35,123 bases of DNA from Promethearchaeota archaeon (GTDB lineage Archaea > Asgardarchaeota > Lokiarchaeia > Sigyniarchaeales > SOKP01), in the NCBI GenBank assembly GCA_016839745.1, contig JAEOTS010000037.1, forward strand, positions 1 to 35,123. The letters run 5' to 3'. The first letter of the stretch is position 1. Each line of letters begins with the position of its first letter. The notes under the pieces are model-generated. The model searched no databases, was not told where the DNA came from, and saw only the letters and a list, made by a program, of their open reading frames with translations. Of this stretch, positions 3,002-24,759 are shown one piece after another. A program made the translations under genes and the position numbers.

Positions 3002-3049
3002 AACCAATATCTAAGTTTCTTTTGTTATATAAAAACATGTGAAAATAAA

Positions 3050-4225
3050 ATGGATTGTAGAGAAAGAGTTTTAGCCGCACTGGGTTTAGAAGAACCAGAT
3101 AGAGTTCCTTGTCACGCCATTCTAATTGACGCTAACAATGTAGATATAATACTAGGGAAACCTAAAATCACTGATTTTGACACTATAGAGCAGTTACAGC
3201 GAGATAATCCAGAGGGGTGGGCAGGAGAGTTAACTAACCTTATAGAAGGTATAGAAACAAGTGTATTTTCACGGTGTACGGAAGCCGCTGCTGCAATTGG
3301 GCTTGATTGTATGCAGGTGGGGATATTACCTTTTTATATTTATGAAGATCCAAACGATCCTCGACTGCTTATGAAAGATATTTTTGGACGCGTATGGGAA
3401 GCTCGAAATAACGAAGGGAATATCAACCCTTATTACTTATATGGGACAATGAATTCGCCTGAGAAATGGAAAGAGACTAGAGAGAACATTGAGGGACCTA
3501 TGACGGAGAAATATACCAAGATGGCTAAAAAATTCTTCCGCCGGATAAACAAGAAACACAAAGATAAAATATTTGTAGCCGTAACCAATGACTTAGCTGG
3601 CGTATTTGAAAGCGCTTCCCAAGGTATGGGTATGACTTATTTTTCTCGGATGCTTCACAAAAATCCTCGTTTTATTAAGGAAGTTCACGAAGTAATAGCA
3701 GAATTTACAGCTGCTTGTTATGACGCTTATATAGATGCAGGTGCCGAATTATTTATAGAATCTGGTGACTTAGCTTACAAAACTGGTCCAATGATGAGTC
3801 CAAAAAAGTTTACTGAGGTATTATTGCCCGCTTATAAAATAATTACTAATACTGTGCACGAACGAGGGAAAAAAATAGTATTGCATACTGACGGTCAAAT
3901 TACACCGTTGTTAGACTTCGTAATAAATTGTGGTTTCGATGGTTTGCATAGTCTGGAACCCACGGCTGGTGTTGATTTAGCTCTCGTGAAGAAGAAAGTC
4001 GGTGATAAATTATGCCTTATGGGGAATATTGATATTGCTCACGATCTTACCTATGGAACTCGAGATGAAGTATTTGATGGTGTAAAATACGCAATCAAAA
4101 CGGCCGGTCCCGGGGGAGGTTACATAGTAAGCGCTGCTAACATGCATCCAACGGTAAAGGTGGATAATTTACGGTGGATGGTAGAAGCCACAAAAGAGTT
4201 TGGAAATTACCCGATAAATCTGTGA
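3050..4225 (+). CDS. Uroporphyrinogen decarboxylase/MtaA-family protein (methylcobamide methyltransferase-like)
   Basis: RERVLAALGLEEPDRVP N-terminus, DLAYKTGPMMSP, VLHTDG, LCLMGNID and GGGYIVS. Ends TGA followed by TAA. Confidence 0.88.
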   Translation: MDCRERVLAALGLEEPDRVPCHAILIDANNVDIILGKPKITDFDTIEQLQRDNPEGWAGELTNLIEGIETSVFSRCTEAAAAIGLDCMQVGILPFYIYEDPNDPRLLMKDIFGRVWEARNNEGNINPYYLYGTMNSPEKWKETRENIEGPMTEKYTKMAKKFFRRINKKHKDKIFVAVTNDLAGVFESASQGMGMTYFSRMLHKNPRFIKEVHEVIAEFTAACYDAYIDAGAELFIESGDLAYKTGPMMSPKKFTEVLLPAYKIITNTVHERGKKIVLHTDGQITPLLDFVINCGFDGLHSLEPTAGVDLALVKKKVGDKLCLMGNIDIAHDLTYGTRDEVFDGVKYAIKTAGPGGGYIVSAANMHPTVKVDNLRWMVEATKEFGNYPINL

Positions 4226-19902: not shown

Positions 19903-20670
19903 TTACTCTTCCTCGACAGATTCCTTGCCTAACAAGCGCATAACGGAATCTGCAAGTTTATTTTGACTACGACTCATAATTCCTTTAATTTTCCCTTCTT
20001 TTCCGAGAACGCGGAGCATGATACCATCCCAAACTGAGGATGGATTCCCCTTTTCTTTCTTGAATTTATCTCTGTGAATCTCTACGCTAATATTATCGTA
20101 ATTTTTCGAAGCGTCCGAACACTTAAAACATAAAATACATTTATCTATGTCTACGGCTATGTCATTACCATCACGGGACATAGCATCTACAGAACACTCT
20201 TCAGTAAACGCGTCAATTACTTTAGTATCTTTTTCAGTGCAGTCGAATTTAATTGAACCATCTACTACCTTTCGTACTTTTTGACCATCTTCTAAAATGC
20301 GAACTTCTTCATCGAATTCAGCAAGAGAACCATTCTCTACTAATAATATCTTACTTTCTCCGTTGATTATTAATTCTAGCGTATATCCCGGACATATCCA
20401 GCTGCAACTGCCACACCATATGCATTTATCAACATCTACGACAATTTTTTTATCTGATTCAACTCTCATCTCTTCTGGAGTTCCTATAGCAGTTTTTTTT
20501 AATGGTTCATCGTAAATAGAAATTGTTACAGGACAAACTCTATGGCAAAAACCACACTCAACGCATTTACTTTCATCGTATTTTAATATACTCTCATGGG
20601 AAAGCATCTTATAGACATAATGAGTAATATTTTCGTCAATTTCGATCGCTTTCTTAGCTGGTAACGACAT
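19903..20670 (-). CDS. 4Fe-4S polyferredoxin-like protein (FwdF/MvhB-like)
   Basis: CVECGFCHRVCP, CIWCGSCSWICP and a degenerate CILCFKC; last gene of the hdrA cluster. Confidence 0.8.
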   Translation of the reverse strand: MSLPAKKAIEIDENITHYVYKMLSHESILKYDESKCVECGFCHRVCPVTISIYDEPLKKTAIGTPEEMRVESDKKIVVDVDKCIWCGSCSWICPGYTLELIINGESKILLVENGSLAEFDEEVRILEDGQKVRKVVDGSIKFDCTEKDTKVIDAFTEECSVDAMSRDGNDIAVDIDKCILCFKCSDASKNYDNISVEIHRDKFKKEKGNPSSVWDGIMLRVLGKEGKIKGIMSRSQNKLADSVMRLLGKESVEEE

Positions 20671-20760
20671 AATCCTTCACTTTTATTTTTCCTTCTTTAA
20701 TTTAAAATATCTTTTTGTATTTTTAAGAATTTATATCAAAACTTATTGACCAAAGTAGAA

Positions 20761-21900
20761 TTAAGTTTTTTCTAATTCCATTTGGCTAATCGCTTTACCA
20801 GACCTGAACGGTATATCATCTATGCTTTCACCGGCGCTATAATCAAACTTTTCCTTAAAGGAGTCGTTTAACGATTGGAAGTATAGTGATAGTGGAAGAT
20901 GTTGTGGACAGTTATTATCGCAATTTCCACATTCGACACAGCGGTCTGCGACATGGGCAATTCTTGTTAATTGATAGGATTCTTTATTGATGATCTTTTC
21001 TTTCCTCTTCTTCATTAGAATACAATCAACACAGTAACATACTGGACATCCTCTGATGCACATGTTGCACATAGTGCATGCTTGGAACCTCTCCAATTTT
21101 TCTTCCTGAGAAAGCTTGTCCCATTCTTCTAAATCCTTTGCTCTCTTTGCTATAGCTGCATCCTTAATGTTTTTAAGGACTTCGGATTGCTTAGTTTTCA
21201 TATCTTCAGGTAAAGGTTTTTTGTTGATCTTTGATTTTTCTACGAGATCTTCGCCTTTATCTGAATACACTTTAAGCACGATTTCGTCCGAATCAATAGG
21301 TAATACAAGATCACTAACGCTAATATCAGCTACAACAGGAACCTTCCTATTACAACGCGAACAGTTCTCTGCTATATCTAATCCAACCTCCTTGGTACTA
21401 CCATCTTCAAATTTAAGAATTAATCCTTTATCGCCAACTTTTTCTTTAACAACTTTAGTTAAATCAAGCCCTTCTACTTTCTTCAATTCGCGAGCGGCGT
21501 TTATTATCATCCCTCTATCCTCAAAGCCAACAACAAAGAGATTATCCATGTTAATCTGTCTAATCTTTGCTAACTCAATAATTCCACGCGTATCACAAGG
21601 ACGAGCGATAACTCCTACTTTTTCGTTTTTAGCCCCATCAACTGATTTGTGTAAGAATTTCGCAGCAGTATCCGTTCTCGCATACCCATATGCAATTAAA
21701 TTCGTTAAAGGAAAAGTAACAAAATCTTCTGGTTTTTCAACGAGTACTGGAGATACGGTAAACCTATCTACAGCCCCGGACTTCTTATCTACTTTTAACT
21801 TTGCTCCAATAATTTTGTCCACGATTTTTTCTTGCAAGAGCGTAGCTAATAGCTTAGGAAAATCCTCAATTTTAATTAAATATTCATCTAACGCATCCAT
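20761..21900 (-). CDS. FdhB/FrhB-family (F420 hydrogenase/dehydrogenase beta subunit-like) Fe-S flavoprotein, 379 aa
   Basis: KVGVIARPCD, ENCSRC, CTMCNMCIRGCPVCYC and RCVECGNCDNNCP. Start placed at ATG 21900 (MDALDEY) because the upstream extension is low-complexity and overlaps the SECIS. Confidence 0.85.
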   Translation of the reverse strand: MDALDEYLIKIEDFPKLLATLLQEKIVDKIIGAKLKVDKKSGAVDRFTVSPVLVEKPEDFVTFPLTNLIAYGYARTDTAAKFLHKSVDGAKNEKVGVIARPCDTRGIIELAKIRQINMDNLFVVGFEDRGMIINAARELKKVEGLDLTKVVKEKVGDKGLILKFEDGSTKEVGLDIAENCSRCNRKVPVVADISVSDLVLPIDSDEIVLKVYSDKGEDLVEKSKINKKPLPEDMKTKQSEVLKNIKDAAIAKRAKDLEEWDKLSQEEKLERFQACTMCNMCIRGCPVCYCVDCILMKKRKEKIINKESYQLTRIAHVADRCVECGNCDNNCPQHLPLSLYFQSLNDSFKEKFDYSAGESIDDIPFRSGKAISQMELEKT

Positions 21901-21988
21901 GTTATTCCAACTCAAAATAGTAAATTTATTTTCTTGTTTTTGATTTAATTTTTTACAACTTTTTCTTTTATTTTTTAATAATTTATTT

Positions 21989-22063
21989 AATGTGTTATAT
22001 GGTGCTCCCATTTCTTCAACTGAGCTCTCATTTTTTTAACTCAGCTTCATTAGCTAACACATT
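21989..22063 (-). promoter_or_regulatory. Eukaryote-like SECIS element (selenocysteine insertion sequence) 3' of mvhD
   Basis: Minus-strand RNA: AAUGUGUUA-GCUA-AUGAA-GCUGAGUU-AAAAAAAUGAG-AGCUCAGU-UGAA-GAAAUGGGAGCACCAUA-UAACACAUU. It has a 9-bp helix I, an AUGA (22050-22047)/UGA (22018-22016) core, an 8-bp helix II and an A-run at the 5' side of the apical loop. Confidence 0.88.
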
Positions 22064-22497
22064 TATTTTTTAGAGGAGTCTTTATTTTTTTTATTTAACG
22101 GGCTCGGTCCAAGTTTCCGTATTTCTTCATCAAAAGCAGTTGCTACTTCCCGATATTTCGAACCTTCTGCTGAACTACAGTATTCCATCTTTAATCTTTT
22201 TGGGTCAAGTCCAATGGTTTTAACTACTTCTTTTAGATATGCAATTGATCTATGGGCAAAATAGTTGCCTTTTTCATAATCGCATTCTCCAGGATATCAT
22301 CCAACAATAATTATACCGTCAGCGCCTCTCCCAAACCCTCTCATAATTACATCCGCACCAACCCTTCCTGTGCATGGAACTAAAACGGTTCTTAAAGATG
22401 TGGGGTATTGAGCTCTAATAGTTCCCGCCATATCAGCTGCACCATAGCCTCATTTTAAACATAAAAAAGATAGAATTTTAATATCGTTGTTACTCAT
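22063..22497 (-). CDS. mvhD: MvhD/VhuD hydrogenase delta ([2Fe-2S]) subunit; selenoprotein with 2 Sec (U16, U67), 144 aa
   Basis: Manual translation: MSNNDIKILSFLCLKUGYGAADMAGTIRAQYPTSLRTVLVPCTGRV...GADGIIIVGUYPGECDYEKGN...RKLGPSPLNKKNKDSSKK*. TGA at 22450-22452 and 22297-22299 replace the Cys of the CxxC and GCxxGxC motifs. GAGGT RBS upstream; TAA stop. Confidence 0.93.
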
Positions 22498-22510
22498 TTC
22501 ATTTACCTCT

Positions 22511-24472
22511 TTAATCCTCAATTGGCAATAATTCGTCAATATAGCTTACATATTGAACATCTTTATAATGCGCTAATTCTATCGCTTTAGAAGGACAAAT
22601 TGCAGTGCATATTCCACAACCTCTGCAACTTATTACATCTACAACAATCGTTCCTTCATCATTAATAGAAATCGCTTTGTATGGACAAGCTTCAATACAT
22701 TTATAGCATTTTGCACATCTTTCGTCTATTGGTTGGGCACGTATTAATTCAATAACATACTCTTCTCGTCCCATTGGAATGCCTGCTGATGATGCTGCTC
22801 CCTTAGCTTGACTTACTGTTAGTTCAATTGATTTTTGACCTTGACATGAACCGGCTAAGTATACGCCTGGGACCTTCGTCTTGATTGGTTCTAAACGTGG
22901 ATGAACTTCTTTTAGGAAACCATCTGGTGATTTCTCAATATTCATTATAGAAGCAATTTCGTTTGTACCCCGCGATGGTAATGATGCCGATGACAAAACA
23001 ACCATATCAACTTCTTGTTTTACGATTGTATCAGTCCCAACTGGTTCAAATTCAACGGTAAGATTCTTTGTTAGCGGATCTTCTTCTATTTTTCCAATCA
23101 TCCCTTTAACAAAAAGAATTCCAGCATCCCTAGCTCTTCTATAATATTCTTCATACATCTTCCCAGCACATCTCATATCTATATAACATACCGTAATTTC
23201 TGAATCGGGATATTCTGAGATTATAAGTTTGGAATTCTTTACGGATAAATTACAACACACGACACTACAATATTCATTCTTTTTTAAATCTCTTGAACCT
23301 ACGCAGTTTATGAATAATATTTTCTTTGGACGTTTTCTATCTGAGGGGCGTACCAAATGACCGAACGTAGGGCCATTTGGAGCAAGAATCCTTTCTAATT
23401 GGATCTGTGTAATAACATTATCATATTTTCCGTACCCATAATCGTCTTCTTGATATAAGTCCCATCCTGTTGCTACAATTATTGTTCCCGCTTCAAGCTC
23501 TATAATTTCGTCTTGTTGACTAAAGTCAATTGCCTCCAAATCACAAGATTCGACACATGCAAAACATTCTACACACGATTCTCTTACAATATCATAAACT
23601 GCCGGAACTGCTTGAGCAAATGCGATATCGATACACTTACGAGCTGAAAGATTTTCATCGAAATAATTAGGAACATATATCGGGCATACTTCCGTACATG
23701 CTCCACAACCAGTACATTCGCTTTCAATGACAAATCGAGCTTTTCTTTTTACTTGGACTCTAAAGTTACCTATATATCCTTCGACTTTTTCTACTTCACT
23801 ATAGGTAAGCATTTCAATATTTGGATGACGATCAGCTTCAAGCATCTTTGGTCCGAGAATTCATATCGAACAATCGTCTGTGGGGAATGTTCGATCTAAT
23901 TGAGACATACGACCACCGATTGTTGTCTTCTTTTCAACTAAATACACTTTATATCCTGCATCTCCCAAATCAATTGCAGCACTTAAACCAGCAATTCCTC
24001 CGCCAATAACCAAACATGTAGGTTTTACATCAACTGTTTTTGTAGGTATCTCTTCTAAAAATTGCGATCTTGAAATCCCTGCTTTCACCAATTCTATTGC
24101 TTTAAGTGTAGCATCATCTCTTACTTCCATTGCTTGATGAACATAACTACAATGTTCTCTAATGTTTACAAATTCCAAATATCTCTGTGGCAATCCTGCT
24201 TCATTTAAAATAGCATGAAATACTGGTTCATGTGTTATTGGAGTTCAAGCAGCTAAGATAATTCTGTCAAAGCTTTTTTCCTCAATTTGTTCTTTAATAA
24301 ATTCAGCGCCTCCAGACGTACACAGATTTAAATACTCATAAGCGTAAACATCATCAAGTTTATCAATTTCTTCTACAATTTTAGGCACATCTAAAATACC
24401 CCCAATATTAACTCCTCATCTACATATAAATGCTCCGATTTTGTGTTTACTATTGGTCTGTTCTTCAGACAA
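22511..24472 (-). CDS. hdrA: Heterodisulfide reductase subunit A; selenoprotein with 3 Sec (U19, U76, U204), 653 aa
   Basis: One continuous frame from TTG 24472 (AGGTGG RBS) to TAA 22511, interrupted only by TGA at 24416-24418 (IGAFICRUGVNIGG), 24245-24247 (RIILAAUTP) and 23861-23863 (TFPTDDCSIUILGPKM). Contains VIGGGIAG FAD motif, CVGSRD...YCSVVCC and several CxxCxxCxxxC ferredoxin motifs. Joins track ORFs 23861..24193 and 22511..23845. Confidence 0.95.
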
Positions 24473-24759
24473 ATTTTCCACCTTTTATCTTTGTATCCTC
24501 CTAATTATAAATGTTTCAACTTATAACGATTTGAATTTATTGTATTTGATTCAATAAATATGATCATGCAAATGGTTCTTATTATTAAAATTCAATTATT
24601 ATTAGTTTTAAAACGAATATTTTTGATTTTAAGTCTTTCCTCATTGCTTTCAAAGTTGAAAAAATCGCACCAGATATAAATAGAATAAAGATTATAACTC
24701 ATGATTCAAACATAACACTTAAGTAAAAATTAAAAAGATCTTTTGATGGGTGAATATTC

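Follow-up and report, generated by a model that had tools for sequence, protein, structure and literature searches.

The minus strand at 22497-22063 of the window, the 35,123-nt stretch of Promethearchaeota archaeon DNA that was analysed (contig JAEOTS010000037.1 of assembly GCA_016839745.1), most probably carries an intact Lokiarchaeia vhuD gene whose two in-frame UGA codons, 16 and 67, would be decoded site-specifically as selenocysteine (Sec) under the direction of a single Loki-type, eukaryote-like SECIS element. We put the probability of this reading, which is drawn from the sequence and its comparison with relatives, at about 93%. Both the two-Sec VhuD and the HdrA-VhuD-SECIS arrangement are already known and are ordinary for Loki-type Asgard archaea, since the identical protein was catalogued in 2024 and the arrangement was described in 2016. 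The locus would serve as a clean and fully verifiable illustration of how a SECIS directs recoding in the archaea nearest to eukaryotes, with five UGAs in two cistrons depending on one eukaryote-like SECIS; beyond Mariotti et al. 2016 and Huang et al. 2024, it adds only an Asgard-specific Cys107 and a three-armed SECIS. The gene and its immediate surroundings are as follows.

22511..24481, minus strand: hdrA, with three predicted Sec-UGA codons (24418-24416, 24247-24245 and 23863-23861); start GTG at 24481 or TTG at 24472
22498..22510, minus strand: 13-nt hdrA-vhuD spacer, in which a ribosome-binding-like GAGGT can be read from the sequence at 22509-22505
22063..22497, minus strand: vhuD/mvhD coding sequence (frhD in Huang et al. 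2024), 144 codons plus TAA, with ATG at 22497-22495
22450..22452, minus strand: UGA codon 16, predicted Sec, at the second position of the C-x-x-C/U motif
22297..22299, minus strand: UGA codon 67, predicted Sec, at the first position of G-C/U-x-x-x-E/D-C
22177..22179, minus strand: TGT codon of Cys107, an extra Cys typical of Asgard Sec-type VhuD

Translation of this frame with TGA read as U yields 144 residues ending in one terminal TAA, free of frameshifts and with internal stops of the TGA type only (22452-22450 and 22299-22297). An earlier note on this DNA had claimed that the apparent gap 3' of hdrA encodes a full MvhD with TGA at codons 16 and 67; the read-through translation agrees and contains every motif that the note quoted (CLK-U-GYGAADMAG, PCTGRV, GADG, G-U-YPGECDY, EYCSSAEG and LGPSP). 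The note had also reported the gene as absent from the ORF track, and it is missing there because the table-11 list holds nothing but 41-44-aa fragments across vhuD. Its count of five recoded UGAs in ~2.1 kb together with hdrA stands as well, the distance from first to last UGA being 2,122 nt. Standard ORF calling loses the whole of vhuD, splits hdrA and probably starts the next gene wrongly, inside the SECIS.

The same protein appears in the FrhD fasta file of Huang, Xiao and Zhang 2024 (ISME J, PMC11227280) as 'Lokiarchaeia_GCA_016839745_U_2', from the same genome, identical over 144 residues and with both Sec given as X; the HdrA file of that study lists the corresponding HdrA, with three X. 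The catalogue entry has 15 additional residues at its N-terminus (LTNYCQLRIKEVNE-), encoded in a frame that runs into the 3' end of hdrA. Judged from the sequence, ATG 22497 with its GAGGT is a more plausible start than the upstream one.

The read-through product belongs to the FlpD/MvhD family. Residues 8-130 match positions 1-123 of the 123-position Pfam FlpD profile (PF02662) at 143 bits against a cut-off of 22.3, so that the profile search proposed in the earlier note returned a full-length match. Moreover, six solved MvhD/VhuD chains in the PDB match the protein at E values of 1e-32 to 2e-35, leaving no room for the note's own counter-case of a product without an MvhD match. The best NCBIfam match is VhuD (NF045873, F420_non_VhuD), at 131.7 bits and under the cut-off of 215; this model is tuned to methanogen VhuD. 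In the literature, Asgard proteins have been named VhuD or FrhD from phylogeny. Residues C13, U16, C42, U67 and C72 fall on the five Cys columns of the solved MvhD chains and the Cys-type paralogues, and the protein shows the five-column family pattern C-x-x-C, PC[ST]G and GC-x4-C, on which the [2Fe-2S] cluster of the family is carried. Given that VhuD is homologous to 5odc_D and 9sfi_K and is encoded 13 nt downstream of hdrA, we infer that it would bind a [2Fe-2S] cluster and dock on HdrA.

Both UGAs lie on Cys columns, against the possibility, raised in the note, of TGAs at non-Cys positions. In the alignment with Cys-type MvhD, codon 16 corresponds to the second Cys of CNWC and codon 67 to the first of GCHxGDCHY; in 9sfi_K, both correspond to X (Sec). 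The statement in the note that methanococcal VhuD has two Sec is borne out by this solved Methanococcus maripaludis chain, and the comparison with Methanococcus and Asgard VhuD that it suggested gives the identical two columns; in the supplement of PMC11227280, every VhuD from Methanococcales and Methanopyrus carries Sec at both. The VhuD of M. maripaludis (PDB 9sfi_K/9t1s; Nature 2026, PMC13518236) and of other Methanococcales and Methanopyrus belongs to the same fold family, and as in M. maripaludis the Loki gene follows hdrA directly, with its Sec codons 51 apart. Unlike methanogen VhuD, Loki VhuD stays below the NCBIfam VhuD cut-off and has Cys, not Met, at column 107; its SECIS is eukaryote-like rather than of the euryarchaeal type, and its partner gene is FdhB-like rather than VhuAGU. 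Cys-type MvhD (5odc_D, 7bkb_F, 8rvu_F, 9sw2_D and the TGA-less matches in the same genome) shares the Pfam FlpD domain, the length, the five Cys columns, GADG and LGP, but differs in having Cys at 16 and 67, in showing the motifs CNWCSY and GCHxGDCHY with their His residues kept, and in having W-I/V-S in place of Y-C-S at column 107.

We scanned one genome per species for relatives of the locus and found 223 related loci, of which the best 80 were compared together with five loci from the same genome, 85 in all. The best 80 of 223 are nearly all labelled Promethearchaeota or Promethearchaeia (Asgard), and both UGAs are kept in 85/85 loci. The genome itself (3.53 Mb, 192 contigs, 32% GC) holds 15 FlpD matches; five have exactly two TGAs, corresponding to the five FrhD-U that the Huang 2024 catalogue lists for assembly GCA_016839745, and the other ten have none and carry Cys at both columns wherever the full domain is present. 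Comparison with seven close relatives gave dN/dS values of 0.12-0.23 for the whole of vhuD, 0.03-0.22 for codons 17-66 and 0.11-0.24 for codons 68-144, indicating protein-level selection on the sequence beyond each UGA. These data bear on the idea that the two genes are pseudogenes, with two nonsense mutations disabling vhuD and three disabling hdrA. The breakup of the table-11 frame into short pieces is what such decay would produce, but every disruption is a TGA on a Cys column, with no frameshift, TAA or TAG among them; the same two UGAs recur in all 85 loci (the best 80 of 223 and the five from the same genome) across Asgard lineages; dN/dS downstream of each UGA is 0.03-0.24; and a covarying SECIS follows the gene. 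Decay of the genes is therefore scarcely credible.

That all five internal stops are TGA would equally be expected if TGA had been reassigned throughout the genome to a standard amino acid, such as Trp or Gly. TGA is, however, the normal stop of 217/1,862 long frames in the genome and of two long genes in the window, and its role as an ordinary stop elsewhere effectively excludes reassignment. The in-frame TGAs of the genome are confined to known selenoprotein families (HdrA, VhuD, SelD, Prx-like and VhuU), where they sit on Cys columns, and genes for Sec synthesis are present, making a standard amino acid at these codons extremely improbable. Decoding as Sec thus remains the preferred reading, and it is the RNA downstream of vhuD that points to how the codons would be recoded. 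The element starts at the vhuD stop and has the following parts.

21989..22063, minus strand: SECIS in the 3' UTR of vhuD, MFE fold of -20.2 kcal/mol, z = -4.5
22063-22055 / 21997-21989, minus strand: lower helix of the SECIS
22050-22047, minus strand: AUGA, 12 nt after the vhuD stop
22046-22038 / 22026-22018, minus strand: perfect 9-bp helix
22037-22027, minus strand: 11-nt A-rich loop, AAAAAAAUGAG
22017-22016, minus strand: GA
22011-21999, minus strand: 3' mini-hairpin

The core at 22050-22016 reads AUGA / AGCUGAGUU / AAAAAAAUGAG / AGCUCAGUU / GA. Published lokiSECIS are defined by an AUGA, a 9-bp stem, an 11-nt apical loop, a GA after the stem and a position near the stop codon (PMC4989117), and the element shows each of these features, including the A-run that opens the loop and its final AG. 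This class, called lokiSECIS by Mariotti et al. (2016, PMC4989117) and Asgard type I eSECIS-like by Huang et al. (2024, PMC11227280), occurs as one element per hdrA-vhuD pair. Across 77 aligned homologous 3' UTRs, compensatory changes occur in 8/9 pairs of the upper helix, and 95% of cells are paired, a result matched by 0 of 500 shuffles; in slid controls the paired share drops to 28-51%.

A covariance model (R1) built from the alignment of the 77 close SECIS has only one match in the 35-kb window, the element after vhuD, which is consistent with one SECIS serving both hdrA and vhuD, as was proposed in 2016 (PMC4989117). Sequence dominates this model, and the divergent SECIS classes that the genome also contains (on contigs C64, C83, C20, C157 and C169) stayed out of its reach, so that no cross-class covariation was obtained for the lower helix or the mini-hairpin. 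Rfam at its gathering threshold gave no match anywhere in the window, the SECIS included, and is uninformative here because no curated family covers Loki SECIS. In the mechanism that we propose, the single SECIS would direct Sec insertion at both UGA 16 and UGA 67, and presumably also at the three hdrA UGAs on one transcript, the farthest of which lies ~2.4 kb upstream.

Mariotti et al. 2016 (MBE, PMC4989117) described Lokiarchaeota HdrA-VhuD tandem pairs with one shared lokiSECIS after vhuD, and named a very short spacer as a hallmark of these pairs. The present locus shares with them the multi-Sec HdrA directly upstream, the short spacer (13 nt), the two-Sec VhuD, the TAA stop of hdrA and the single SECIS near vhuD, with AUGA, 9-bp stem, 11-nt loop of the form AAAAA...AG, and GA. 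There is no essential difference, apart from the extra lower helix and 3' mini-hairpin.

In the MFE fold, the published hairpin is joined by these two extra arms, a lower helix of 9 bp and, on the 3' side, a mini-hairpin of 4 bp. Across the 77 homologues the two arms hardly vary, unlike the AT-rich spacers around them. The genome has seven strict lokiSECIS, listed here with the strand given for the one in the window.

21989-22063 of the window, minus strand: strict lokiSECIS
contigs C79, C64, C83 and C20: strict lokiSECIS
contig C157, 40729: strict lokiSECIS
contig C169, 178: strict lokiSECIS

They serve five vhuD genes, one Prx-like gene and one VhuU-like gene, and all seven share the three-armed layout with unrelated sequences and a mini-hairpin of 4-6 bp. 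The three-armed MFE fold was recovered for 6/7 of them, compared with 7-19% of flank-shuffled controls; this control replaced a hand-written three-way descriptor, which was dropped as 14% of random sites satisfied it. The layout is not described in the main texts of PMC4989117 and PMC11227280, and a full-text literature search returned no paper combining SECIS with a three-way junction.

Sec insertion also depends on the decoding machinery, of which the genome encodes a large part. SepSecS is found at 411 bits, above its cut-off; a PSTK-like protein gives a full-length match of 173 bits, under the curated NCBIfam cut-off; and an EFSec-like GTPase, at 229 bits just under the bacterial SelB cut-off, shares a 6.8-kb contig with SepSecS. 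Two tandem genes for selenophosphate synthetase (SelD) at C158:16249-18543, each with one in-frame TGA, score above the cut-off, and several selD copies have been reported in Loki and Thor archaea (PMC11227280). tRNA-Sec was not found in the assembly: the only match to RF01852 in the genome was a tRNA-Gly at 37.8 bits, and neither ARAGORN with and without introns nor an Rfam E-value scan of the EFSec/SepSecS contig recovered it. The published Loki tRNA-Sec has a 31-nt intron in the T-loop that defeats standard models. Given this intron and a MAG that is 89% complete, we treat the missing tRNA as a gap rather than as contrary evidence.

The same absence could be held to favour readthrough of the UGAs that relies on near-cognate or Cys insertion and not on Sec directed by a SECIS, or an insertion of Sec so inefficient that the product is mainly truncated, and five UGAs do make a demanding load for one distant SECIS. 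Against this, the SECIS is conserved and covarying; a complete Sec machinery, intron-bearing tRNA-Sec included, has been published for Lokiarchaeota; SelD is itself a Sec protein in this genome; and the orthologous methanogen VhuD has been structurally confirmed with Sec at both sites (9sfi_K). We consider such readthrough very unlikely and retain SECIS-directed Sec at both codons as the explanation.

The gene context suggests what the protein would do. HdrA matches 9sfi_A at E 1.7e-205, with its third UGA on an X (Sec) column and the other two on Cys columns. A TATA-like TTTATAA stands ~25 nt further upstream of the start region, and the gene ends in TAA, in line with the published rule that UGA never ends hdrA. 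Two genes follow vhuD on the same strand.

20761..21900, minus strand: fdhB/frhB-like gene, with Pfam FrhB_FdhB_C and Fer4
19903..20670, minus strand: FwdF/FmdF-like polyferredoxin gene, 255 aa, with Pfam Fer4 families

Among solved structures, the FdhB-like protein best matches the FdhB chains of Hdr complexes (7bkb_E at 1.4e-36, followed by 9t1s_M and 8rvu_E). The order hdrA-vhuD-fdhB-like is found in 81/85 loci (the best 80 of 223 and the five from the same genome), and the FdhB-like product is the probable electron-input partner. The polyferredoxin matches FwdF (5t5i_F, 8e-19) and FmdF (7bkb_K, 1.8e-14) in the PDB, and NCBIfam FwdF at 54 bits, under the cut-off. The four-gene cluster at 19903-24481 (minus), hdrA-vhuD-fdhB-like-fwdF-like, lacks hdrBC, fdhA and hydrogenase genes; the vhuAGU neighbours by which a Vhu [NiFeSe] hydrogenase is recognised are accordingly absent from it. 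A VhuU-like selenoprotein fragment lies elsewhere in the genome, on contig C169.

The start that the ORF finder assigns to the FdhB-like gene, ATG 22011 of a 416-aa ORF, coincides with the AUGG in the mini-hairpin of the SECIS. Translation probably begins instead at ATG 21900-21898, leaving a spacer of ~160 nt, because homology begins near residue 28-38 of the 416-aa ORF in most of the 81 loci and the paralogue on contig C79 has a stop four codons after the position equivalent to ATG 22011.

In methanogen complexes, electrons reach the bifurcating FAD of HdrA from the input module mainly through the [2Fe-2S] cluster of VhuD, and a VhuD helix helps to dock alternative input modules, Vhu hydrogenase or FdhAB (PMC13518236). 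By analogy, Loki VhuD may dock on HdrA and pass electrons from an input module through its [2Fe-2S] cluster to the bifurcating FAD of HdrA. The input module here would most probably be the adjoining FdhB-like protein, and the low-potential electrons would probably be taken by the FwdF-like polyferredoxin. It is therefore likely, on this analogy, that HdrA, VhuD, the FdhB-like protein and the polyferredoxin make up an electron-bifurcating module with VhuD as its entry adaptor. Under selenium shortage, the TGA-less FlpD/MvhD matches of the same genome could substitute, much as Vhc does for Vhu in Methanococcus.

Cys107 sets Asgard Sec-type VhuD apart. As the earlier note had observed in EYCSSAEG, a Cys stands at the usual W-I/V-S position; the alignment places it on a column where Cys-type MvhD has I/V, the VhuD of Methanococcales and Methanopyrus has M, and a Loki/Sif subgroup of the C83 type has L. 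Of the 85 loci (the best 80 of 223 and the five from the same genome), 84 show the motif C[ST][SA]A[ED]. Because the other residues at this column are all hydrophobic, Cys107 most likely just occupies a buried hydrophobic position. A bolder and rather unlikely alternative is that Cys107 pairs with one of the Sec residues, forming a selenenylsulfide switch or serving as another possible ligand of the cluster, and that Asgard VhuD would thereby gate electron entry into HdrA in a way that methanogen VhuD does not, and that the three-armed SECIS may let one element serve five UGAs over 2.4 kb.

Several relatives show features of their own. The VhuD of M. maripaludis strains X1, KA1 and OS7 (supplementary file 75 of PMC11227280) has Sec at the first column only and Cys at the second (VAGCKPNEC), so that the second Sec is dispensable within a species. 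At L062:4709-4813 and L070:4710-4814 (minus strand of these loci), the opposite strand bears another SECIS of the main class just past the FdhB-like gene, which implies a convergent second selenoprotein gene at both. Locus L060 (DATKTW010000168.1), labelled 'Candidatus Nanopelagicaceae bacterium', has the hdrA-vhuD-fdhB-like unit in its typical Asgard Sec-type form, together with a lokiSECIS, and its MAG is probably mis-binned or mislabelled. Finally, the vhuD genes of three relatives (L073, at 3033-3062, L074 and L083) contain a 30-nt insertion one codon upstream of the first Sec-UGA, flanked by a 7-nt direct repeat, AATGAGG. Within the insertion lies a hairpin whose three copies differ by compensatory changes. 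The peptide that the insertion would encode is unconserved, an in-frame TAA interrupts it in L083, and excision of the insertion restores FLCWK-U-GYG; the covarying hairpin, the unconserved peptide and the in-frame TAA suggest a small intron-like RNA element.
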